Positions 7,211 through 64,000 of a DNA stretch of 64,000 nt are shown here, piece after piece; positions within the stretch are counted from its first letter, which is position 1; each line of letters begins with the position of its first letter. This DNA is from an uncultured Anaerolineales bacterium (GTDB lineage: Bacteria > Chloroflexota > Anaerolineae > B4-G1): contig CAZKDJ010000003.1 in NCBI GenBank assembly GCA_964551295.1, positions 510-64,509 on the forward strand. The letters run 5' to 3'. Below the pieces are notes generated by a model that worked only from the letters and a program-made list of their open reading frames with translations, did not search any database and was not told the DNA's origin. The translations under genes and the position numbers were made by a program.

Positions 7211-8359
7211 CTACATGCCTCCTCTGAATGCCTCGGCCAGTCGTGCCAGCGGCCGCGTCCACGATACCGAGGGCGTCACTGCCTCGTTCTGTGCCAGATA
7301 GGCCACTACCTCGCGGATCTCTTCCGGTGAAACGTGTGCTGCCTGGAAGCGCATCACCCGTCCCTCGGCTATGGCCACAAAGTCTCCTCGACCCATCAAC
7401 CGCTCCGCCCCCGTGCCACTCCAGCCGGTGGCCGTGCGGGCGTCGTTGGCGCAGGTCACGCGCCCCACCAGGCGCACCGGGAAATTCGCCTTGATCAGTG
7501 GGCCCAGCACCTTTGCCGATGGCTTTTGTGTGGCGGCGATGATGTGGATGCCGGCCTCGCGCCCGCGCTGAGTCAGTCGGGTGAGCGCCCACTCTATCTC
7601 TTTGCCCCCCACCATCAGCAAATCCGCCAACTCGTCGATGACTACCACGATGCGGACTATTCCAGTCCGTGGGACTGTTTCACCCTGACTGCCCTGCCTC
7701 TCCATCAAGTGTACCAGGCTTTGAAGCGCCTCTGCCGCTTCATCCGCTTCTCGAATGACGTCGCGCGCCAGATGCGGCAATCCCTGGAAAACGCCAAAGG
7801 CATATCCCTTGGGATCGATCAGCATCAGCCGCAGCCCGCCGACCAGCTCCCTTGTCTGAAATGGCGATGGCGCAGGGTTGGCCATTGCCAGGCTGAGGAT
7901 CATGGTCTGCATCAGAACCGTCTTGCCCGACCCAGTGGTGCCGGCCACCAGGATGTGGGCCACGTCTGGAGAGGACAGCCGAATCAGGAGTGGGGCACCA
8001 TCCTCGCCCAAGCCCAACATGGCGGTCACAGGGGGGATATTGCCGTCTTCCTCATCCAGTTGGCGATAGAGAGGCAGCAACTGCACGGGCATGGGGTCGT
8101 TGCGCGGTACCTCGACGTCCACAGCCGCTCCCCGCCGCGACACCCTGCAATTGGGGGCATCAAGTGCGGCGGCCAATTCCTCACTCAACCCTTTGATTTT
8201 GGAGATTTTTGTTCCTAGCATAGGCAACACCTGAAAGCGAATCCAGCGTGGCGTCACGGTACCGCCGGTCACTCGCGCCGGTATTTTGTGTAGGGACAGG
8301 ACCGCTTCGATCCTGTCGGACTGAAACTCTAATCGCTCGCGCATTGTTGTTTGCTCCAA
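7211..8359 (-). CDS. FtsK/SpoIIIE-family DNA translocase ATPase, motor alpha+beta domains only (no membrane domain, no gamma domain)
   Basis: 382 aa. FtsK alpha-domain-like N-terminus, Walker A VAGTTGSGKT, Walker B VVVIDELADL, and an R-finger region ATQKPS; the protein ends about 40 aa after the motor domain. Confidence 0.85.
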   Translation of the reverse strand: MEQTTMRERLEFQSDRIEAVLSLHKIPARVTGGTVTPRWIRFQVLPMLGTKISKIKGLSEELAAALDAPNCRVSRRGAAVDVEVPRNDPMPVQLLPLYRQLDEEDGNIPPVTAMLGLGEDGAPLLIRLSSPDVAHILVAGTTGSGKTVLMQTMILSLAMANPAPSPFQTRELVGGLRLMLIDPKGYAFGVFQGLPHLARDVIREADEAAEALQSLVHLMERQGSQGETVPRTGIVRIVVVIDELADLLMVGGKEIEWALTRLTQRGREAGIHIIAATQKPSAKVLGPLIKANFPVRLVGRVTCANDARTATGWSGTGAERLMGRGDFVAIAEGRVMRFQAAHVSPEEIREVVAYLAQNEAVTPSVSWTRPLARLAEAFRGGM

Positions 8360-8704: not shown

Positions 8705-9349
8705 TCACTGCAACTGGCGGACGACCATCATCACCTTGCCCTGCACCTCCACCTGACGGGGATTTACATAAATCGGCTTCATCGTGGGATTGGCCGGTTG
8801 CAGGCGCACCTGTGTTCCTTCATCGTAGAATCGCTTGAGCGTCACTTCCTCGCGATCCTTCAGCCACACGGCTGCCATCTCGCCGTTCTCCACTTTCTGC
8901 TGGTAGCGCATGACCACGATATCGCCGTCGTTGATCAGCGCGTCGATCATCGAGTCTCCCTGCACCTGCAAGGCGTACAGTCCCTTGGGGTCTCCCAGGA
9001 TGTCGCGGGTCAACTCGACCGTCTCGTCGCCCATCAGCGCAAAGTCGCTGCCGGGCACTGGGAGCGGTTCGCCGGCCACGATGCGCCCCAGCAGCGGTAC
9101 GCTGACCACGGCCCGCGGCATCGCCTGACGGCCCATGGCGACCAGCTTCAACCCGCGCGACACTTCCCTGTCGCGGCTGATGTAGCCCTTTTCCTCCAAC
9201 CGCTTCAGGTTGTAGCTCACGACAGAGGTGGAGCTGATCCCCGCCGCGGCACCGATCTCGCGGATGGAGGGTGGGTAGCCATTCTCCTCGATGTACTCAT
9301 TGAGGAACTCGACGATTCTCCTCTGTCTTTCCGAAAGATGCTCTGCCAT
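8705..9349 (-). CDS. lexA: LexA repressor
   Basis: 214 aa. N-terminal wHTH (RQRRIVEFLNEYIEENGYPPSIREI), a linker, and an S24 peptidase domain with GDSM Ser and downstream Lys. Confidence 0.95.
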   Translation of the reverse strand: MAEHLSERQRRIVEFLNEYIEENGYPPSIREIGAAAGISSTSVVSYNLKRLEEKGYISRDREVSRGLKLVAMGRQAMPRAVVSVPLLGRIVAGEPLPVPGSDFALMGDETVELTRDILGDPKGLYALQVQGDSMIDALINDGDIVVMRYQQKVENGEMAAVWLKDREEVTLKRFYDEGTQVRLQPANPTMKPIYVNPRQVEVQGKVMMVVRQLQ

Positions 9350-14348: not shown

Positions 14349-16413
14349 CGGCGTCTTTGTATCCCGGGATCGGCCCGAAGGATGCCTCGATCTGCTCCGG
14401 CTCGTAGATCTCCAGCATGCACTCCCACCAACCTAGACCGCCGGTCTTTTGGAACTCCCACCACCAGATATCGAGCCAGGAGTAGCGCCAGCGCCACAGG
14501 GAGGCTAGACGCTGCCATCCATAGTCGCTGGCCAGACTCGTGAAATCCACATAGTAACCGGAGGGGATGCGCTCTTTGATCGCCCCTCCCTCTACCAGAG
14601 CGCTGCCGCCTTGCTCGCGGGCGTGCAGATCCCACACGCCTTCGCGCAGGGGCTCGCCCATGCTCCCATCCTGCTCGGCGGCGCGGATGAAAACACGCCA
14701 GTAGGTGGCGCTACCGATGTCCTCTCGTACCAGCTCGATCTGCGGTGTGTCTGCATCGTATGGACGCTGATCCAGCCCGATTGCCCTGCCGCAGACGTGC
14801 CAGTTCATGCGCGAGTGGCCTGAGGGCGGCGTGTACGTCATCGGCAGCCACGCGCTTTCCAGGCTGCCCAAATAATCCCACCCCGTCTCTTGGATGACGC
14901 GTTGGCGCAGCGCGCCAAAGCTGTCGTTCACCCGATTGGAGACCAGGAACGTCTCTTGTGCTTCATTTTCCTCTGCTACGACTGTTACTGCTGTCTCTTC
15001 TTCGCCCTCTTCATCTTCCTCACCTTCCTCTACCACCACCTTTTTCTCGAAGGTGCTGTCGCTGATGTCCTGGAGGGGGACAAGCCGGTAAGGTGGCCCG
15101 GAATCCGGCGGCGGCTGCACTACCTCTATGTAGAGGGAGGGAGAATCCGCCGGTACGGCTTCTTGAGCACGGGCGATGACGCGCGGGGAGAGTGCCAAAT
15201 CGGCCCACGCCAGGTCGTCCATGCGCCCGTCGATGCTGTACACTTCCTGGGAAATCGCCCAGCCGGTCATGCCGGCGGCGATGATGTGGCTGCGCCCTTC
15301 CCGATCGTGGGCGATATAGATCAGGCTCTGGCCATCGGGCGCCCAGGCAGGGGAAGCGCCGGCGCCGAACAGCTCGGTTTGCGCCTGACCGACCTCCATC
15401 GCGTCCCAATCGAAGGTGGTGATCTGTATGGAGGGGTTGCCGCGTGGCCCGCTGACGTAGGCCAGTTGCGTGCCGTCGGGCGACCAATTGGCATAGTCCT
15501 CGTCTACGTCAGGGCTGTTGGTGACGGCGATGGTCTCGCTCGTCTCGATGAGGTGCAGGTAAATGTCTTTGCTGCCATCGCGGAAGGAGGTGAAAGCAAT
15601 AGCCCGGCTATCGGGTGACCAGGATGGCTCGTAATCGGGAGCGTGGCTGGTGGTGATGAGCCGCATCTCACCTCCGGAGGTACTCATGATGTAGATGTCG
15701 AGGTTGCCCCGCCGGTCTGATTCGAAGGCGATATATTTGCCGTCGGGCGACCAACTGGGGTTGCCGTCAAAACCGGGGGCTTGGGTCAGGCGGATCAGCG
15801 CGCCGCTGACCAGATCGAGAAGGTAGCTGTCCCAGTTGTCGCTGCGGTTCGAGGTGAAGGCGACGTATTGACCATCAGGGGACCAGGCCGGATCCCGGTC
15901 GTCCGCCAGATCGTGAGTCAGTTGTACCAGTTGCCGATCGGCGTGGTTGATGGCATAGATATCGGTGTTGCTGCTGCGGCGCAGGGTGAAAGCGATAGCG
16001 CCGCCACTGCCAAAGGGTGTGGGTACGAGCGTGGGGGTAGGGGGAGGGTTGGGCGTTGGCGTGACGACGACGATCTCGGGCGAGCTCTTGATCGGCGGCG
16101 CCGTGGTCGCCCGGTAGAGCGCGTACCCCAAAAGTCCCAGGATAGCCGCGTTGCCCACGATCAGCAGGACGAGCATCTGCAGCCCGCGTGGCTGTATCGT
16201 GACTGGCTTGCAGACCTCGTTGGGCTTGACCAACCAGCGTCGGGCAAAGACGAGGCGCTTCCAAAGCCAGACGAAAGGGCTGGTAAGTAGTCGGAGGATG
16301 TTTCTTGCACGGTCGCGCAAGCGACCCTGTTGCTCCTCTGTCGGCTCTGGCTCGAGTTCGCCCAACTCCTCGAGTTCTTCGAGCTGCCCTGCTCTCAGCA
16401 CGTTGTCGGCCAT
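14338..16413 (-). CDS. TolB-like beta-propeller (PD40 repeat) membrane-anchored protein with a C-terminal Trp-rich domain
   Basis: N-terminal TM helix, Pro-rich linker, repeated WSPDG PD40 motifs, an acidic linker, and a C-terminal domain of unknown function. Start set at MADNVL (16413) because the upstream part of the ORF runs into a tandem repeat. Confidence 0.7.
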   Translation of the reverse strand: MADNVLRAGQLEELEELGELEPEPTEEQQGRLRDRARNILRLLTSPFVWLWKRLVFARRWLVKPNEVCKPVTIQPRGLQMLVLLIVGNAAILGLLGYALYRATTAPPIKSSPEIVVVTPTPNPPPTPTLVPTPFGSGGAIAFTLRRSSNTDIYAINHADRQLVQLTHDLADDRDPAWSPDGQYVAFTSNRSDNWDSYLLDLVSGALIRLTQAPGFDGNPSWSPDGKYIAFESDRRGNLDIYIMSTSGGEMRLITTSHAPDYEPSWSPDSRAIAFTSFRDGSKDIYLHLIETSETIAVTNSPDVDEDYANWSPDGTQLAYVSGPRGNPSIQITTFDWDAMEVGQAQTELFGAGASPAWAPDGQSLIYIAHDREGRSHIIAAGMTGWAISQEVYSIDGRMDDLAWADLALSPRVIARAQEAVPADSPSLYIEVVQPPPDSGPPYRLVPLQDISDSTFEKKVVVEEGEEDEEGEEETAVTVVAEENEAQETFLVSNRVNDSFGALRQRVIQETGWDYLGSLESAWLPMTYTPPSGHSRMNWHVCGRAIGLDQRPYDADTPQIELVREDIGSATYWRVFIRAAEQDGSMGEPLREGVWDLHAREQGGSALVEGGAIKERIPSGYYVDFTSLASDYGWQRLASLWRWRYSWLDIWWWEFQKTGGLGWWECMLEIYEPEQIEASFGPIPGYKDADAD

Positions 16414-21014: not shown

Positions 21015-21104
<90 letters not shown>

Positions 21105-56151: not shown

Positions 56152-59100
56152 CTAGTTGTTGCGCATAATCAGTGGCATGTAGGTATGGTACACTGGCAGC
56201 CAGAAGCGTGCCAAGACAGGATCGTGGTCGCTGGCACGCCTGGACGAGTTGGTAATGTCGGTCACGAACTCGGCGTTGACGTGGACCACGTCAAACTCTG
56301 GTCTGGCAGCGCCGACCAGGCCGTCGCTGACCAGGATCTGATCCAGCACCTGCGAGTTGCCCTCAAAGACGTATGTGTAGCGTTCGGTGATGGGCACCGA
56401 GTACATCAAGTTCGTCAGTGCGTCGGCCGCCAGCACATCGGACACCGCCTCCGAAAAGTGAAAGTCGTTCAGGTCGCCCAAGACGATCACGCTGGCATTT
56501 GGGTCCAGCGCCAGCATGCTGTCCACAAAGTCGTTCGTCATCTGCGCGATCCCGATGCGCTCGGCCTCGGAGGCAAAGACCGGAGGCTGCACGCTGCCAA
56601 AGAGCGGGGCGTCGCCGCTCTTGGAGTTAAAGTGGTTGACGATGACGAACACCTTTTGATCGTTGAAGATGAACTCGGCAGCCAGTGACTTGCGGCTCTC
56701 GGCGACGGCCGGGTTGTTAGGATCGACGCGACCTGGGCTATAGGTTAGCTCAAGCCCGGTCGCTCCGATGACTGGCGTGGTCGCCATGGTGGCCGTCGCC
56801 ACGCCGCGTTGAACCAGCGTCACCCGGTCGGGATTGTAGAGAAAGCCCACCCGGATGTTTGCTCCCGGCGCGCCACCATCATGGTTGTCCTCTGGTGCGA
56901 TGTCTGCGTAGGCGTAGATCGGGCCGCCTGCGTTCTGGACCGCCGTGATCAGCGTGCTGTAGGTCAAGCTGGCGTCGACCGTTCCGTCGTCATCTTCTCC
57001 GTTGTTGTCCTGGATTTCCTGCAGCCCCAGGATGTCCGGTGCTCCCAGGTTGTTGACGATCTGATCGGCCAGTCTTTCGAACTTGTACTGCGTGTCACCT
57101 GGATCGAGGTTGTAGACGTTGAAGGAGGCGACGGTGAGATAGTTCTCCGTGGCGGATAGGGTCGTGGTTTCAGGGGCCAGCCCGCCGGACGTTGCGCTCA
57201 GGGGGTTGGCATTCACCAGGTAAAAGTTGCCGTACGTTTGCACGTCGTCATAGTCTATGGTGCCGGTGATAGGGCCTGTAAGGTGATCTCCCACGTCTAC
57301 GTCAGGTGGGCCGGAGACGCTGGGGTTGGCTACGAGCAGCCGCTCGGGGTTAAAGTCACCTTCACGGATGACGACCCCGGCCATAACGCCGTTCCGCCCT
57401 GCCATGAACGTCACGTGGGCACCACCATCGCCCACGACGGGAATGGCATCATCCTCGGTGGCGCCGACGGCGACGGCGTCGTTGACCCGCACCAGCATAC
57501 CCTCCAGGCTCTCGTAAAAGTCGATACCGTCGGTCTGTGGATCGAAAGTGCCCGCGGTCTCAACGCTGCCGCCGCCGGCGTCGTCATCGATTACCTCCGT
57601 GGGCGGCATACGCCCGCCAACGCCGATGATGATCGGAGTAGGCAGCGCGTTGCCGGTGGACGATATGACTGGCGATCCCTGCAGTTCGATGCGGGTCGTG
57701 GAGAGACCCGCACTGCCGGCATTGTAGAACTCGCTCACCGTGCCCTCGACCAGTACATCGTCGCCCACCGACACGCCGGTCGAGCTGCCAAAGACCAGGA
57801 TGCCCTCGGAAGTGGCCAGGTCACCGTCTTCGTCGGGGTCCTGGATGTAGAAGCCGTTTCCGACGATGAGCGTGATGACGCCGCGCACGTCCTGCACCAG
57901 TTGACCGTTCAGCGGCGAGAGGTGCCTGGCCCCCTGGATGTCGCGGATGCGCAGCGGCCCACTGCTGACGACGGTGCCGACGTACGCCCCGGCGGTGGGG
58001 GTGACAAAGTTGGATGCGACCACCGCGTAATCGTCGTTGAGGATCAACGCTGGGCTAGTGGTGGCCGTGACCGCGAACCTGACGGACACGCTGCTCGCGT
58101 CGGTCACGGACGGCACCGTCCAATTGACCACGCCGCCGTCCTCCGCGCCGCCGCCCAAGGCGTAAGCGAAGGTCGCGTTGGTCGGGACGGTGTCGGTGAC
58201 GGTGAGGTTGTTCAGCGTAAAGCCAAGATCGTTCTGGATGGTCAGCGTATAGGTAAAGCGCTCGCCAGGGGCGACGAGGGAGGGGGCACTCTTGCCAAGT
58301 TCAGGGCTGGTCGCCTTGAGGCGGATGTCTGCGTCGTCACGGGGTTCTAGTTTGTATTCGCTGAATGTGTAGTAGGCGATCCCCCGCATGTAAAAATAGA
58401 AATCGCCGTTGGATGGCTCGTAAGTCATGTCGCCATCCACCATACCTCCGTCATCTGCATGCGCGGGACCACTGCCGTCATCGAACGCCCATTCGCCGTA
58501 TCCCAAATCGTCGTCGGTCACGGTAGCATCCTGGAACTCGACGAGTACGCCTTCCCATTGTTCCGACGTCGCCGGACTGCTGCTGGCAAAGCTAGTGGTC
58601 GAGATAACATCCGGCCCTGGCACCGGATTGCCCGTGCTCAAGACCTCCAAGGTGGCGGTCGCGATGCTGATATCGAACTCGGTCAGACCCCAGTATTCGG
58701 TCACCTCTCCCAACAAGCGCACTTGGGTTCCTCGCGGGAGTGAGATGCTGGGGAAGGCCGACCCTTTCCATACCGGCAGACCGCTCCAGGGACCGCCTGC
58801 GGGGTCTTGGATGACAAAAAGGTTGAGTTGGTCGACGTCGCCCGGCTCGGCAGTCACGGTGCCTGTCACCCACACGATTTGATCCTCTAGCGGAGAGGCG
58901 TCATCGGTCGCAGGATCAGACACCTCTTGGATATCCCTGATCGTCACCAGGGGATAGGCCGTGGTCGTCCATTGATCGGTATTGTTGGTAAGGATGTCGC
59001 CTGCCGTTTCGGTATGGACCTGAACCTCATTCTCTAACACAGTGGCGCCGGTCACGCCAGCGTCCACCGTCGCCGTCAGGTGGAACGTCTGGGTGGTCTG

Positions 59101-60585
59101 AGAAACCACCTCGGCCACGGTCCAGGTAAGGACGCCACTGGCACCGGGCGTGCAGCTAGTGCACGTCCACCCACTGTCGTCGGAGACGTAGGTGGTGCTT
59201 AGGGGCAGTGTATCGGTGAGGACGATGCTAAGCGCCGAGGTGATGCCCGCGTTCTGCACTGTGATGGTATAGGCCAGGCTCCCGCCAGCGGCTGCATAAG
59301 TCGGCCCCTCTTTTTGTACACTCAAATCGGGGGAGTTGACGGTGGAGACCCAGGCAGATTTGTTGTCGCTCGTGGTGGAATCTCCGCTGGTCGTGGTGAT
59401 ACTGGCGGTGTTGGTGAGGATGGCTCCGGAAGAGACGCTTCCCGTGAGCCAGCCGTTGACGCTGAATGACAGCGTCTCGGTCGCGCTGATGATTCCCACG
59501 TGCCACGTCAGTGTGCCCGTCGCGCCCACGGCACACGCCGGGCAGGACAGGCCACTGTCATCGCTCAGGTAGCTCACCCCTGTTGGGAGCGTGTCGCTGA
59601 CGACCACGCCCGAGGCATCGGCTGTACCGGCGTTGGCGCAACTCAGCTCATAGGTCATGGAACTGCCCGGTAGGGCCAGGGTGGGGCCGGACTTTGAGAT
59701 GGACAAGTCGACACATGAGCCGGTCTCGTTGGGGCTTGGCGCGGCCACACACCAGGTTGTGCTCAGGTCCTCGGATGTTTCGTCGTTGCCGCCGGCGCCA
59801 TTGCCGCCGGTCTTGGTTTCGCTGCCCTCTGTCGAATCATTCCGTCGCCACGAGGAGCCAATCGTATGAGAACCCGACGCTATGACGTCCTGGGAACTGA
59901 TCGTTGTATCAGCCAGGTAGGTGCTGGTGACCACGTCGGCGTCCGGGCCGTCGATCGAGATGCCGGTTTTATCTACCGCTTCGGCCTTGTCTCCCCACAC
60001 GACGTAATCGAGATCGGTCACCAGGTCGGTCGTGCCGTCCCAATAGTACAGGATGACTACTTCTCCACTGTTAGACAATCCACTTCCAGTGTGGATCGAG
60101 CTTGTAAAGACCTCGCGCATATCGGGAATCGTGTCAGGAGCAACCTCCTCGTACAGTTCATAGGTGGGCGTGATACCATAGGTGGCGAAAAAGTTATTCG
60201 ATCCGTTCAAGGCGATGGTTTGATGTTCTTTTGGAGCAATAGTCGCGCCGTCGGGAAAGCGGGCGTGAAAGTCGCTGAAGGTGCTTCCTCCAGCGTCTCC
60301 CCCATTGACGATGTTATAGTAGAAGGCACCGCTAGCAGTGGCGTCGGTGAGGTAGACGTCGCTCAAATCGACCGCCGTGTCTCCAGGGTTGTAAATCTCG
60401 ATAAACTCCCCCTCTGTAGGCGTGACAACGATCTCGGTCAAGAGCAACTCCGGGGCTGCTGGGTCTGGGTCGGCATAAACTGGCAAGCCCTCTAGACCCA
60501 CAATTAGTGCGATTGCGGCCAGGGTGCTGGCAAGCAGGGTGGTAATCAACTTGCATTCTTTAGTCATTTCGTGTACTCCTTTCAT
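56152..60585 (-). CDS. large secreted extracellular nuclease: lamin-tail domain, DUF11/Ig-like repeats, C-terminal endonuclease/exonuclease/phosphatase (EEP) domain
   Basis: Signal anchor; LTD (LLLTEIVVTPTEGEFIEIYNPG); repeated DUF11-like segments; an EEP catalytic domain (VASFNVYNL...LGLQE...VIVNHFNSK...GDLND). The start could instead be MTKECKL (60567). Confidence 0.85.
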   Translation of the reverse strand: MKGVHEMTKECKLITTLLASTLAAIALIVGLEGLPVYADPDPAAPELLLTEIVVTPTEGEFIEIYNPGDTAVDLSDVYLTDATASGAFYYNIVNGGDAGGSTFSDFHARFPDGATIAPKEHQTIALNGSNNFFATYGITPTYELYEEVAPDTIPDMREVFTSSIHTGSGLSNSGEVVILYYWDGTTDLVTDLDYVVWGDKAEAVDKTGISIDGPDADVVTSTYLADTTISSQDVIASGSHTIGSSWRRNDSTEGSETKTGGNGAGGNDETSEDLSTTWCVAAPSPNETGSCVDLSISKSGPTLALPGSSMTYELSCANAGTADASGVVVSDTLPTGVSYLSDDSGLSCPACAVGATGTLTWHVGIISATETLSFSVNGWLTGSVSSGAILTNTASITTTSGDSTTSDNKSAWVSTVNSPDLSVQKEGPTYAAAGGSLAYTITVQNAGITSALSIVLTDTLPLSTTYVSDDSGWTCTSCTPGASGVLTWTVAEVVSQTTQTFHLTATVDAGVTGATVLENEVQVHTETAGDILTNNTDQWTTTAYPLVTIRDIQEVSDPATDDASPLEDQIVWVTGTVTAEPGDVDQLNLFVIQDPAGGPWSGLPVWKGSAFPSISLPRGTQVRLLGEVTEYWGLTEFDISIATATLEVLSTGNPVPGPDVISTTSFASSSPATSEQWEGVLVEFQDATVTDDDLGYGEWAFDDGSGPAHADDGGMVDGDMTYEPSNGDFYFYMRGIAYYTFSEYKLEPRDDADIRLKATSPELGKSAPSLVAPGERFTYTLTIQNDLGFTLNNLTVTDTVPTNATFAYALGGGAEDGGVVNWTVPSVTDASSVSVRFAVTATTSPALILNDDYAVVASNFVTPTAGAYVGTVVSSGPLRIRDIQGARHLSPLNGQLVQDVRGVITLIVGNGFYIQDPDEDGDLATSEGILVFGSSTGVSVGDDVLVEGTVSEFYNAGSAGLSTTRIELQGSPVISSTGNALPTPIIIGVGGRMPPTEVIDDDAGGGSVETAGTFDPQTDGIDFYESLEGMLVRVNDAVAVGATEDDAIPVVGDGGAHVTFMAGRNGVMAGVVIREGDFNPERLLVANPSVSGPPDVDVGDHLTGPITGTIDYDDVQTYGNFYLVNANPLSATSGGLAPETTTLSATENYLTVASFNVYNLDPGDTQYKFERLADQIVNNLGAPDILGLQEIQDNNGEDDDGTVDASLTYSTLITAVQNAGGPIYAYADIAPEDNHDGGAPGANIRVGFLYNPDRVTLVQRGVATATMATTPVIGATGLELTYSPGRVDPNNPAVAESRKSLAAEFIFNDQKVFVIVNHFNSKSGDAPLFGSVQPPVFASEAERIGIAQMTNDFVDSMLALDPNASVIVLGDLNDFHFSEAVSDVLAADALTNLMYSVPITERYTYVFEGNSQVLDQILVSDGLVGAARPEFDVVHVNAEFVTDITNSSRRASDHDPVLARFWLPVYHTYMPLIMRNN

Positions 60586-60855
60586 TTGCTTGGTTGTGGT
60601 TCCCGGTACCGTTCAAACGGCTATGGGATGTGTAGCTCACTGGACTGAGTAGGCGCGAGCTTTGTTGCAGCGCTTCAGAGGCATCACCTCCCTTTACACT
60701 GTCACATGGCAGAGTTCACGAGTCAAAATTGCCTTTGAGAGATGTTCTCAACATGTCTCTACGAACAGTGATGTGACCTATGAGGTATGATTGGACTTTT
60801 GAGGACTGGGATATGATAGCACAGGTTCGAGAAATCGAAAAATCGGCGACGATGA

Positions 60856-60885
60856 TTGACGCCTCTGGGGGCACATGGTATAATC
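60856..60885 (+). promoter_or_regulatory. extended -10 promoter TTGACG-N18-TGgTATAAT for the T-box leader
   Basis: Read directly. Confidence 0.6.
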
Positions 60886-60891
60886 TAAACA

Positions 60892-61250
60892 CCGACCGAA
60901 TATGCAAAGACGGCGAGCAGGAGGAGTAGGCGGGATCGGTCCTGGCGAATCGCGTCAACGGATGGAACGGATTTAACGGATGCGAGAAGAGAAAGGGGCC
61001 GCCGGCTGCAAGCCCCGGCAGCACCGACCGCCGAACGTCGCCTGGGAGTCGAGAGGGTCAACGGATACTCAACGGATGGAACGGATTTAGCAGAGTGTCC
61101 GAGAGCCTTCTTCGGGTTCGCCCGTTATAGCGGGGGTCCTTGTTGGAGGACCGCAGAGCGCGGGCGGCACCTACGGTGCCGTATCCGAACCAAGGTGGTA
61201 TCGCGGAAGTTTGCCCCTTTCGTCCTTGGACGAGAGGGGCTTTTTACATA
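60892..61250 (+). ncRNA. T-box riboswitch leader (tRNA-sensing antiterminator) preceding the aminoacyl-tRNA synthetase gene
   Basis: Conserved T-box sequence AACCAAGGTGGTATCGCGG at 61188-61206, immediately followed by an intrinsic terminator (GCCCCTTTCGTCC-TTGG-ACGAGAGGGGC-TTTTT) at 61213-61245. The leader also contains a 21-nt direct repeat. Confidence 0.7.
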
Positions 61251-61275
61251 TCACGAACGGAGGTAAAACCGATGT

Positions 61276-63723
61276 ATGGGGTTAGCAAAACGATATAAGC
61301 CGAACGAGGTGGAACCGCGGCTCCAGGCAGGCTGGCAGGAGGCCGGTGTCTACCACTTTGACCCGCAGGCGCATGGGCCGGTCTATTCGATTGACACGCC
61401 CCCGCCGACCGTCTCGGGCCACCTGCACCTGGGCCACGTCTATTCCTACAGCCACGCCGATTTCATGGCCCGCTTCTGGCGTATGAACGGCTACAACGTC
61501 TTTTATCCTATGGGATACGATGACAACGGCCTGCCCACCGAGCGGCTGGTAGAGCGGCGATTGGGCATCCGGGCAACTGAGGTGGGGCGTGGGGCGTTCA
61601 TCGAAAAGTGCCTCCAGGTGAGTGAGGAGGAGGAACGCGCCTACGAGGCGCTGTGGCAGCGGCTGGGGCTTTCCATCGACTGGCGTTACACCTATCGCAC
61701 CATCGACGACCTCTCACGACGTACGTGCCAGCTTTCCTTTATCGATCTTTACCAAAAGGGGCTCGTCTATCACAAAGAAGCGCCCTCCATCTGGTGTCCT
61801 GAATGTGGCACGGCCATCGCCCAGGCCGAGCTGGCCGATTTGGAGAGGGAGAGCGTGTTCTACACGCTGGCCTTTCAACTGGAGGACGGCGAGACGCTGC
61901 GAATTGCCACCACCAGACCGGAGCTTCTCCCTGCGTGCGTGGCCGTGTTCGTCCATCCTGACGATGCGCGTTTCAAAGCGCTGGTGGGCCAGCGGGTGAC
62001 TGTGCCCCTCTTTGGGCAGCAGGTGGAGGTGCTGGCAGACTCCGGCGCCGACCCCGAGAAGGGCACCGGCGTGGTGATGTGCTGCACCTTTGGCGATACC
62101 GCCGACGTCGAGTGGTGGCACACGCACGATCTGCCTCTCAAGGTCGTCATCGGGCGGGATGGCCGGCTGACCGAGGGCGCGGGCGATTTTGCCGGACTGA
62201 CCACAACCGAGGCGCGGCGGCAGATCGTCCTGGCGCTGGAGGGCAGCGGCCTCGTCCTCGAGCGCCGGCCCATCGCCCAATCGGTGCGCGTCCACGAGCG
62301 GTGCGATACGCCGGTGGAGTACATCGTGACCAAGCAGTGGTTCATCCGCCTGTTGGATGCCAGGGACGCGTTCCTTGAGGCGGGAGAAAAGATCGTCTGG
62401 CACCCGGCGCACATGCAGGCGCGCTACCGTGCCTGGGTGGAGAATCTGCACTGGGACTGGTGCATCTCGCGCCAGCGCACCTTTGGCGTGCCGTTCCCCG
62501 TGTGGACCTGCGACGGTTGCGGCGAGGTGATGCTGGCCGACGAGGCGCAGTTGCCGGTCGATCCGCTGGAGCAGCAGCCGGCACGGCCCTGCGCCTGCGG
62601 TTCCACGTCTTTCATGCCTGATCGGGACGTGATGGACACCTGGGCCACATCATCCCTCTCGCCGCAGATCGTGGGCCGCTGGCTGGCTGACGCGGGGTTG
62701 TATGAAAAGGTGTTTCCGATGTCCCTGCGCCCCCAGGCGCACGAGATCATCCGCACGTGGGCGTTCTACACCATCGTCAAGTCTCACTATCACTTTGGCG
62801 CGCTGCCCTGGAAAGAGGCTGCCATCTCCGGCTGGGGACTGGCGCCGGAGGGTGCGGGCAAGATCAGCAAGAGCCGCGGCGGCGGCCCGATGGCGCCGCA
62901 GGAGATGATCGAGCTGTACTCCGCCGACGCTGCGCGCTACTGGGCCGCCAGCACGGGCTTTGGCAAGGACTCGATCATCAGCGAGGAAAAGATACAGGCC
63001 GGGGCCAAGCTGGTCACCAAGCTGTGGAACGTGGCCCGTTTCAGCGAGCGGTTTGTGGCCGGAGCCGCAGGCTCCGTCGATTATCAAGTACCATCTGAGG
63101 CTCCGCCGCTTTCCCTGGCCGACCGCTGGATTCTTTCCAGGACCCAGCGGCTGGTCGAGTGGGTGACGGCGCTCTTTCGCGATTACGATTTTGCCGCGGC
63201 CAAGAGCGAGACGGAGGCCTTTTTCTGGCAGGTGCTGGCCGATAACTATCTGGAGATGTGCAAGCTGCCGCTCTATGAGGAGAACAGTCCCGGGGCGCGC
63301 TACGCGCTGCGCGCGGCGCTCCTGACCGTGCTCAAGCTCTTTGCGCCGTTTATGCCCTACGTGACCGAAGAGATCTACCAGGGATTGTTTGCGGCGGGCA
63401 GCGGTTCGATCCACCGGGCCAGTTGGCCCGTCGCGGACGAGTCCCTGATCGATGAGCAAGCAGAGGCCGCCGGGGACGTGGTGGTGGAGATAGCCACCGC
63501 GGTGCGCCGCTACAAGACGGAAAACCAACTCCGCATGGGCGCGGAGCTGGCGCGGCTGCAGGTGGCGGTGGAAGATGCGAGTCTACGTCAGACATTGGGT
63601 GAGGCCGTTGTCGATATCAGGAGCGTCACTCGTGCAGAGCGGGTGGAGATCGTCGAGCAGTTCGACGGCGACTTGAAAATTATCCAGGATACGGGTATTA
63701 TCGCTGTAGCCCTGAAAGAATAG
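61276..63723 (+). CDS. valS: valyl-tRNA synthetase, archaeal/actinobacterial-type (class I, editing subfamily)
   Basis: IDTPPPTVSGHLHLGHV HIGH region, YNVFYPMGYDDNGLPTE, DWCISRQR, KISKSRG; 815 aa with no bacterial C-terminal coiled coil. The Val assignment rests on similarity to archaeal-type ValRS; Ile/Leu specificity is not fully excluded. Confidence 0.75.
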   Translation: MGLAKRYKPNEVEPRLQAGWQEAGVYHFDPQAHGPVYSIDTPPPTVSGHLHLGHVYSYSHADFMARFWRMNGYNVFYPMGYDDNGLPTERLVERRLGIRATEVGRGAFIEKCLQVSEEEERAYEALWQRLGLSIDWRYTYRTIDDLSRRTCQLSFIDLYQKGLVYHKEAPSIWCPECGTAIAQAELADLERESVFYTLAFQLEDGETLRIATTRPELLPACVAVFVHPDDARFKALVGQRVTVPLFGQQVEVLADSGADPEKGTGVVMCCTFGDTADVEWWHTHDLPLKVVIGRDGRLTEGAGDFAGLTTTEARRQIVLALEGSGLVLERRPIAQSVRVHERCDTPVEYIVTKQWFIRLLDARDAFLEAGEKIVWHPAHMQARYRAWVENLHWDWCISRQRTFGVPFPVWTCDGCGEVMLADEAQLPVDPLEQQPARPCACGSTSFMPDRDVMDTWATSSLSPQIVGRWLADAGLYEKVFPMSLRPQAHEIIRTWAFYTIVKSHYHFGALPWKEAAISGWGLAPEGAGKISKSRGGGPMAPQEMIELYSADAARYWAASTGFGKDSIISEEKIQAGAKLVTKLWNVARFSERFVAGAAGSVDYQVPSEAPPLSLADRWILSRTQRLVEWVTALFRDYDFAAAKSETEAFFWQVLADNYLEMCKLPLYEENSPGARYALRAALLTVLKLFAPFMPYVTEEIYQGLFAAGSGSIHRASWPVADESLIDEQAEAAGDVVVEIATAVRRYKTENQLRMGAELARLQVAVEDASLRQTLGEAVVDIRSVTRAERVEIVEQFDGDLKIIQDTGIIAVALKE

Positions 63724-63744
63724 AACAACCGAAGGAAGGAAAAG

Positions 63745-64000
63745 ATGACGGATAAGCTAGCCAAAGTATACAACCCCCAGGAACACGAGGAACGCCTCTA
63801 CACGTGGTGGGAGGAGCAGGGTTTCTTCCGCCCGGAGAAGCAGCTCGAACTGGGTCTGGCAACCGAGGACGACCCGTGTTTTTGTATCACTATGCCGCCG
63901 CCTAACGTGACCGGCGTGCTGCACCTGGGGCATGCCATGACCGCCGCGGTCGAGGATCTGATGACGCGCTACTACCGCATGAAGGGGTATCAGGCGCTCT
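63745..64000 (+). CDS. valS: valyl-tRNA synthetase, bacterial-type (5' part; runs off the window)
   Basis: Canonical bacterial ValS N-terminus MTDKLAKVYNPQEHEERLYTWWEEQGFF...CITMPPPNVTGVLHLGHA; an aaggaagg RBS lies 21 nt after the upstream stop. Confidence 0.85.
   Translation, partial: MTDKLAKVYNPQEHEERLYTWWEEQGFFRPEKQLELGLATEDDPCFCITMPPPNVTGVLHLGHAMTAAVEDLMTRYYRMKGYQAL

Follow-up and report, generated by a model that had tools for sequence, protein, structure and literature searches.

T-box leaders have been reported in Chloroflexi (PMC2494555; TBDB preprint 10.1101/2020.06.17.157016), and the described systems to which the leader treated here is most readily compared are the Val-specific T-boxes of valS genes in Firmicutes. 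This analysis concerns a 64-kb stretch of DNA from an uncultured Anaerolineales bacterium (GCA_964551295.1, contig CAZKDJ010000003.1; hereafter the window), at the end of which a promoter and a structured leader precede two adjacent valyl-tRNA synthetase (ValRS) genes, valS1 and valS2. In our judgement this leader is probably a tRNA-Val T-box attenuator of valS1-valS2, with a 21-nt direct repeat that it carries as a tolerated passenger. As in the Firmicutes valS T-boxes, the window leader has a Stem I with a K-turn, a specifier followed by a purine and an AG bulge/distal loop, a Stem II, an F-box region, a Stem III, a UGGN bulge and a competing antiterminator and terminator, and the gene under its predicted control is a cognate synthetase. 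What sets it apart is a clade-specific side hairpin on Stem I, one more hairpin ahead of the T-box sequence and a pair of repeat insertions; moreover, it precedes two ValRS genes, not one.

Duplicated synthetases with divided roles are found in Bacillus subtilis, in the pairs thrS/thrZ and tyrS/tyrZ. The same has been described for the threonyl-tRNA synthetases (ThrRS) T1 and T2 of Anabaena (PMC4787780). The window resembles these pairs in that two intact paralogues are retained under selection and one copy is apparently inducible, whereas the members of those pairs are separately regulated, by a T-box on each or by zinc control. In Bacillus cereus, a T-box controls the class I (archaeal-type) lysyl-tRNA synthetase gene lysK, which exists beside the class II gene lysS (PMC2916919). 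There too, two distinct synthetases serve one amino acid and the T-box lies on the atypical one; however, lysK and lysS are unlinked and of different classes, whereas both window genes are class Ia, adjacent, apparently co-transcribed and conserved across a phylum-level clade. ValRS is among the most stable and least duplicated aminoacyl-tRNA synthetases (PMC5388404), and the literature that we searched contained no description of an adjacent dual-ValRS pair; the conserved dual-ValRS operon is apparently undescribed so far.

A valine-specific T-box leader precedes valS1

A sequence-only reading of this DNA had placed a promoter, a T-box leader and a terminator ahead of the first synthetase gene, and all three were recovered. 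The sigma-70-type promoter (60856-60884; like all features of the locus described below, on the + strand) matches 11/12 consensus positions, with TTGACG at 60856-60861, a 17-nt spacer, TATAAT at 60879-60884 and an upstream TG at 60876-60877. Its -10 region, TGGTATAAT, is kept in the related loci L004 and L066. The leader that follows (60904-61245, ~340 nt), supported by its Rfam match and by orthologous leaders, comprises Stem I, Stem II, a Stem IIA/B region, Stem III, the extra hairpin, the T-box sequence and the antiterminator/terminator. Rfam was scanned at the gathering score and then in permissive mode with the leader alone, and the latter gave a full-length (1-219) match to RF00230 at 60904-61230, with 48.7 bits and E = 1.4e-9.

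The core of Stem I spans 60918-61048 in the cmscan alignment, where the AGUA of the GA/K-turn motif falls at 60925-60928. Covariation agrees with this assignment, as RNAalifold on 17 aligned orthologous leaders gave compensatory changes at 11/18 predicted Stem I pairs. An AGAGA bulge (60988-60992) and a distal stem-loop (60995-61016) align to the AG bulge/distal loop of the RF00230 consensus, and this block, which would form the tRNA-elbow platform, is conserved in the 17 leaders. Regular expressions for the specifier recognised no more than 15-20 leaders and were misled by divergent ones, in which they proposed false alternatives; an alignment took their place. The cmscan alignment places the 3' side of the specifier loop, GAA-C-GUC-G, at 61033-61040, and the specifier codon is therefore GUC (Val; 61037-61039), followed by a purine at 61040. 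GAA-N-GUC-R-CC is invariant among the 17 leaders, which bears out the GUN codon that the sequence-only reading expected for a valine leader. Stem II, the CCGUUA box and Stem III of the window leader also aligned to RF00230.

The T-box sequence, AACCAAGGUGGUAUCGCGGAAG, was aligned at 61188-61209, with AAGGUGGUAUCGCGG at 61192-61206 and the 7-nt bulge UGGUAUC at 61196-61202. The UGGU of this bulge is complementary to the tRNA 3' end ACCA, which implies a discriminator A73. A73 is the discriminator base of bacterial tRNA-Val. A core TGGNA(C/T)C(G/A)CG was found 67-160 nt upstream of valS1 in nearly all of the 80 related valS1 loci surveyed; in the window it is single, at -80, and accompanied by one specifier and one terminator. 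The antiterminator helix (61192-61227, from the cmscan structure line) pairs 61192-61195 with 61224-61227 and 61203-61207 with 61219-61223, and the residues of its 3' strand (61219-61227) are partly those of the terminator's own 5' strand (61213-61225). The intrinsic terminator itself (61213-61245) consists of a 12-13 bp stem at 61213-61240 and TTTTT at 61241-61245; its fold has a z of -3.72 and it is conserved in L004 and L066.

With these parts the leader is predicted to allow tRNA-dependent readthrough. Transcription would start ~7-10 nt after the -10 box, and Stem I would offer its codon GUC to the anticodon of tRNA-Val(GAC). When the tRNA is uncharged, its 3' ACCA would pair with the UGGU bulge and stabilise the antiterminator at 61192-61227, and RNA polymerase would read through into valS1 and then into valS2, 21 nt on. 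When the tRNA is charged, the terminator at 61213-61245 would form.

Some further observations concern these leaders. The T-box bulge of the L052 and L056 leaders is TGGCACC, not TGGTACC, and would pair with a G, not an A, discriminator. In L203 (Ardenticatenaceae GCA_027493995.1; 5083-8571), valS1-valS2 are preceded by a gene for a methyltransferase-like protein of 250 aa, and the sole T-box core is found ~70 nt upstream of that gene; there the T-box may control all three genes. A 49-aa open reading frame (ORF) at 60780-60929, annotated as a gene in JGI contigs, overlaps the promoter and the early T-box leader and is probably a spurious call.

Two intact ValRS subtypes

The two Val-type synthetase genes noted from the sequence were found as described, 21 nt apart, with gene 1 at 61276-63723 (815 aa) and gene 2 starting at 63745. 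On NCBIfam, Pfam and motif evidence, valS1 encodes a short-form ValRS of the PRK13208 type; the motifs IDTPPPTVSG and YNVFYPMGYDDNGLPTE that had been picked out are present in this ORF, and a Shine-Dalgarno (SD) sequence GGAGG lies at 61259-61263. The protein scores 1046.7 bits against the NCBIfam ValRS equivalog NF009687/PRK13208 (cutoff 738) and 736.5 bits against TIGR00422 (cutoff 612), versus 344 bits on the isoleucyl (IleRS) and 203 bits on the leucyl (LeuRS) synthetase model, and its best PDB match is the Thermus thermophilus ValRS 1GAX (349 bits). Its identity as a ValRS, not an IleRS or LeuRS, is thereby upheld. It has the catalytic and anticodon-binding domains and, according to Pfam, is without the C-terminal coiled coil (PF10458). 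What bears on the putative archaeal type of gene 1 is its subtype model (PRK13208, not PRK05729), this missing domain and its homologs: among the best 120, every one with a named source is from Chloroflexota (Anaerolineae, Ardenticatenaceae, Ktedonobacterales).

The window holds the first 85 codons of valS2 (63745-64000), and the part past the window end was read from two metagenome contigs that encode an identical gene 1, L001 among them. The full-length protein of 952 aa belongs to the bacterial type, as had been proposed, with 1116.6 bits against NF004349/PRK05729 (cutoff 704), a Val_tRNA-synt_C domain (PF10458, the C-terminal coiled coil) and, again as the best PDB match, 1GAX at 714 bits. 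The identity between the two proteins is ~29%. Neither an Ile or Leu assignment nor inactivating substitutions in the HIGH/KMSKS motifs, either of which would have spoken against the sequence-only reading, were found: valS1 keeps HLGH (HIGH), KISKS (KMSKS), the threonine-rich peptide TTRPEL and GTG..D (CP1 editing), and valS2 keeps HLGH, KISKS, TTRPET and GTG..D. In comparisons with the orthologs in L004, L005 and L007, dN/dS was 0.13-0.16 for valS1 and 0.15-0.17 for valS2. Judged from their sequences, neither gene is a decaying copy and both look functional, and both enzymes are expected to charge tRNA-Val.

Both genes have sequence peculiarities of their own. The valS1 start is overlapped by an 8-codon mini-ORF, MYGVSKTI* (61272-61298), which opens with an out-of-frame ATG; this ATG precedes the valS1 start by 4 nt and has the better spacing from the SD sequence. 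L004 and L066 both retain it, and in L066 the start codon of valS1 itself, at the same position as in the window, is GTG. Past the window end, valS2 contains two in-frame, GC-rich palindromic repeats of ~46 nt (L001:13129-13207 and 14733-14778), of the form CCCCCCCTCTrTCCCCCCCGCrGGCGGGGGGGACrAAAGGGGG, which encode PPLSPP[QR]AGGTKGG. Copies are present, absent or length-variable among orthologs, as in an in-frame repeat like the Rickettsia palindromic elements (RPEs), and a search of the window for this palindrome did not find it.

A conserved valS1-valS2 pair, a probable operon

The 21-nt spacer between the genes (63724-63744) holds only an SD-like GAAGGAAGGA and has no space for a terminator or a promoter, and a short junction with an SD sequence is also found in L004-L007. 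A promoter-like TTGAAA-17-TATTAT at 63673-63701, within the 3' end of valS1 and 44 nt before valS2, is probably a chance match: only the relative with 91% identity keeps it, L005-L007 have degraded versions, and shuffles expect 0.7 such sites per region. In 12 loci in which the two genes are separated, no T-box core was found within 600 nt upstream of valS2, and in the related loci the T-box always stands before valS1. The promoter of its own that had been considered for gene 2 was thus not borne out, since the spacer is too small and neither a conserved internal promoter nor a separate T-box is present. We infer that valS1 and valS2 are co-transcribed as one operon.

A type-2 ValRS lies downstream of valS1 in 35/50 informative related loci (those with enough downstream sequence), across most of the valS1 tree. 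Where the genes are paired, valS2 either adjoins valS1 at a distance of 22-190 nt or follows at 0.9-2.9 kb, beyond intervening unrelated genes; the 15/50 loci without a downstream valS2 include one coherent sub-clade of the valS1 tree. Additionally, at least 10 contig sizes recur in both the valS1 and the valS2 homolog lists, and the pair also occurs on the 10.4-Mb contig of the Ardenticatenaceae genome GCA_027493995.1. In the window, GC content, GC content at third codon positions (GC3) and codon usage of both genes match those of the neighbouring genes. These patterns of synteny and composition indicate that the pairing is ancestral to a large Chloroflexota clade, that the T-box belongs to valS1 and that valS2 has occasionally been uncoupled or lost. 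In GCA_041300525.1, valS1 keeps a GUC T-box while the downstream type-2 ValRS covers only residues 1-432/952, and this gene is a probable valS2 remnant. In the same locus (L204:9636-10808), the short type-2 gene is followed by opposite-strand nuo genes, and a DUF4145 gene lies between it and valS1.

The 21-nt repeat lies in two apical loops of the leader

A direct repeat in the leader had been noticed from the sequence alone; the exact identity over 21 nt and the distance of 114 nt stood, while the coordinates were off by one base, the copies being at 60955-60975 and 61069-61089. Shuffles expect 0.00 such pairs, and the repeat extends to 26 nt at 92% identity (copy 2 to 61094). Each copy is made of three AACGGAT heptamers on the + strand, starting at 60957, 60966 and 60975 and at 61060, 61071 and 61080, with a period of 9-11 nt. 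There are thus six heptamers in ~130 nt, against ~0.006 expected locally, and the remaining ~64 kb of the window hold only 5 AACGGAT copies on both strands, which is about chance level.

The two copies coincide with two large insertions in the Rfam alignment. Copy 1 forms the loop of the clade-specific Stem I side hairpin (60950-60985, from the fold and the comparison with L004), the stem of which pairs 60950-60956 with 60979-60985. L004 shares this stem (UCGCGUC/GAUGCGG) but has a tetraloop, AACG, on top of it, and therefore the window has an 18-nt (2 x 9) expansion; in L066 an unrelated hairpin tip occupies this site. Copy 2 forms the loop of the distal hairpin of Stem II (61062-61101), with a stem at ~61062-61070/61093-61101 (CGGAUAC/GUGUCCG); the fold of 61050-61112 has -23.6 kcal/mol and a z of -3.65, and relatives have a short hairpin at this site. 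The triplet is absent from L066 (93% aa identity), and L004 (91%) has a single-copy heptamer. We interpret both as recent copies of a repeat that is dispersed in Chloroflexota and has A/G-variable heptamers. Copy 1 appears to have grown by 2 x 9 nt from one AACGGAU in an ancestral tetraloop hairpin, and copy 2 appears to be a duplicate of the copy 1 sequence placed in the Stem II loop. The repeat is most likely a tolerated passenger and not part of the switch; its loops cap peripheral hairpins, and extra RNA there would leave the tRNA-contacting parts undisturbed.

A dispersed family of heptamer repeats

The triple heptamer was searched for in 185,579 species genomes; at least 120 loci matched, and the following counts refer to the matches listed. 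Among them are ~24 Chloroflexota metagenome-assembled genomes (MAGs; Anaerolineae, Thermoflexus, Ardenticatenaceae, Chloroflexia), many filamentous cyanobacteria (Microcoleus, Calothrix, Stigonema), some Bacteroidota and one Armatimonadota. This breadth across phyla is partly an ascertainment effect, since such a scan necessarily picks out the heptamer and short tandem repeats of many kinds abound in cyanobacteria. The cyanobacterial copies have a GGC flank in 69/84 cases and occur in arrays of GTAACGGAT. The Chloroflexota copies share an extended form, (G/C)TC-AACGGAT-TG-AACGGAT-TnT-AACGGAT-TTTT, with a TC prefix in 17/28 and GTC in 11/28, GTC being present in both window copies. About half of them continue into inverted ATCCGTT units, giving a three-segment hairpin, and one MAG has at least three copies of the triplet. 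At 22/24 sites the Chloroflexota copies are intergenic, as judged from GC3-filtered ORF calls, which for high-GC loci replaced raw ORF lists that were too noisy. Most of them precede a start codon by no more than 80 nt, few are in convergent spacers, and the bias towards divergent over convergent spacers (5 vs 1) is not significant. The genes beside them are functionally unrelated, and a role of the heptamer as a valS-specific operator was rejected as the main explanation on this ground.

Elements of this kind also occur in other valS1 loci. In L019 and L029 a full palindrome of AACGGAT x3 / ATCCGTT x3 lies between the terminator and the SD sequence of valS1. At the same post-terminator site of L022 (3906-3968), every unit reads AGCAGAT/ATCTGCT in both arms and the hairpin is kept. 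L018 and L038, of the same clade as L019, are without the element. Furthermore, ~60-90 nt upstream of valS2 in L019 (~9250-9336), L022 (~9170-9254) and L029 (~8250-8334) there are tandem AATCTGCT-like units ending in TGAC (the reverse complement of GTCAGCAGATT), which form a degenerate half-element of similar style directly before the valS2 SD sequence.

A full-text literature search for AACGGAT/ATCCGTT returned only primer and oligonucleotide noise, and the family was compared with described repeats. In heterocyst-forming cyanobacteria, the gene for RNase P RNA is reported to contain heptamer repeats of the short tandemly repeated repetitive (STRR) type (Vioque 1997, NAR 25:3471, as cited in PMC2858038). 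As far as that citing account goes, they are, like the window repeat, heptamer-based and tolerated in a peripheral helix or loop of a structured RNA, and on this analogy they would be the best precedent for the insertion in the window. They differ in being contiguous tandem heptamers, in another RNA and phylum and with another unit, whereas the heptamers of the present family are separated by spacers and often form three-segment palindromes. Strict membership in the cyanobacterial STRR was rejected, as 7-nt units with 2-4 nt spacers and a 9-11 nt period are STRR-like only. The family also resembles the REP (repetitive extragenic palindromic), REPIN and CGTC palindromes and the Rickettsia RPEs (PMC3733652, PMC3116915). 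Its copies are likewise short, dispersed, mostly intergenic and often arranged as palindromes or inverted pairs; they vary among closely related genomes, are plausible sources of hairpin RNAs and in many cases start with (C/T)GTC. CGTC-tagged REPs are built of one stem of 8-9 bp with a loop of 4-5 nt, an unpaired CGTC tag and a CCA tail (PMC3733652). Membership in that family was rejected as well, since the heptamer element has three units per arm with internal loops and its GTC pairs with GAC in the palindromes; the (C/T)GTC start is its sole resemblance to them.

Weighing of alternative explanations

Several observations weigh against the interpretation of the locus as a T-box attenuator with a passenger repeat. 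At the gathering threshold of 93 bits, which is an annotation cut-off and not a structural feature, the Rfam scan returned no T-box in the window, and the 48.7 bits of the leader stay under it; of the RF00230 match proposed from the sequence alone, the full-length alignment was obtained and a score above gathering was not. A search of the window for a tRNA-Val gene found none to set against the anticodon and discriminator that the leader implies. As for the repeat, the two leader clusters are the only ones in the 64 kb and the extra L001 sequence, and across 589 kb of valS loci the heptamer clusters, six in all, were found exclusively in leaders of valS1, with two independent lineages represented. 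That every cluster lies there is mildly surprising for a purely neutral passenger. The low score of the leader is explained by its clade-specific features and repeat insertions: four orthologous leaders (L018, L019, L022 and L029) reach 96-105 bits, over the gathering score, and others 80.3 (L004), 71.6 (L066), 62.4 (L007) and 60.2 (L005), with the insertion-free close relatives L004 and L066 exceeding the window leader by 23-32 bits. The exact identity of two 21-mers within one leader could also suggest a duplicated Stem I element or tandem specifier, and thus a double or tandem T-box, as the sequence-only reading had put forward. A single specifier loop, T-box core and terminator argue that the repeat is neither. 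Its copies lack any specifier-loop, K-turn or platform motif and map to Rfam insertions in apical loops, and the closest relatives have complete T-boxes without it, which makes this the least credible of the alternatives, close to negligible. The sole tRNA of the window is a tRNA-Ser(GGA) at 21015-21104.

The heptamer triplets could instead be functional, with the two single-stranded loops serving as binding sites for a factor in trans. This would be either a multimeric protein that binds RNA or an RNA with the complementary ATCCGTT half of the palindromic copies, and its binding would provide a second input or leader stability. Their exact identity and loop exposure, their recurrence in the valS1 leaders of the independent lineage L019/L029, the 6/6 clusters in valS1 leaders, the concerted change in both arms of the retained L022 hairpin and the intergenic, start-proximal position of the Chloroflexota copies would fit such a role. 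On the other hand, the triplets are absent from L066, L018 and L038 and L004 has none, their position varies by lineage between Stem I/II loops and the post-terminator site, the genes downstream of genomic copies are functionally unrelated, the divergent/convergent bias lacks significance and the insertions cost the leader 23-32 bits of its match to the T-box model. The clusters in valS1 leaders, the L022 change and the half-elements before valS2 keep this function alive at low probability, and we regard it as unlikely. A wider form of it, in which an ARCRGAT triplet is a cis-acting RNA (or DNA) module that Chloroflexota have in common with filamentous cyanobacteria and some Bacteroidota and that a conserved trans factor recognises, is somewhat less likely still. 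If true, the two loop-displayed copies would be a second, tRNA-independent input to a T-box riboswitch, and the L022 change, the 5'-proximal genomic copies and the recurrence in valS1 leaders would reflect function. Still less probable, and only slightly ahead of a tandem T-box, is the proposal that one ValRS gene was recently acquired in this genome by horizontal transfer as a resistance or stress paralogue. The two proteins are of different subtypes and share little identity, and duplicated synthetases often serve resistance or stress roles (PMC9437257, PMC4787780). Nevertheless, the conserved synteny (35/50 loci, most of the valS1 tree) and the native GC, GC3 and codon usage lead us to reject a recent transfer, and purifying selection on the two genes is equal. 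A lineage that shortens valS2 yet retains valS1 and its T-box further points to partial redundancy, not to a specialised resistance gene. We know of no natural ValRS inhibitor. The tRNA-Val T-box attenuator of valS1-valS2 with a tolerated passenger repeat is thus the interpretation that we retain.

Significance

The regulatory mechanism of the window leader is a known, textbook one, and the dual-ValRS operon and the loop-tolerated insertions are modestly interesting as new instances. A large Chloroflexota clade keeps two ValRS subtypes side by side, under equal purifying selection and with a Val T-box on the short type. Such a clade is a natural setting in which to ask what keeps two full-length enzymes, both competent in editing, for a single amino acid; different tRNA-Val isoacceptors, fidelity regimes or stress conditions are possible reasons, and the shortened valS2 of one lineage hints at partial redundancy. 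In addition, the leader points to two apical loops at which a T-box tolerates 18-26 nt of extra RNA. Such sites could be useful for riboswitch engineering and also for annotation, because insertions of this kind drop genuine T-boxes below the Rfam threshold. The heptamer family is an uncharacterised dispersed repeat worth cataloguing.

A neighbouring gene

Upstream of the locus, on the - strand (56152-60585), lies a divergently oriented gene for a protein of 1477 aa. The protein begins with a signal-like segment, has LTD, CLIPPER-repeat and endonuclease/exonuclease/phosphatase domains, and is probably a large secreted or surface nuclease/phosphatase.

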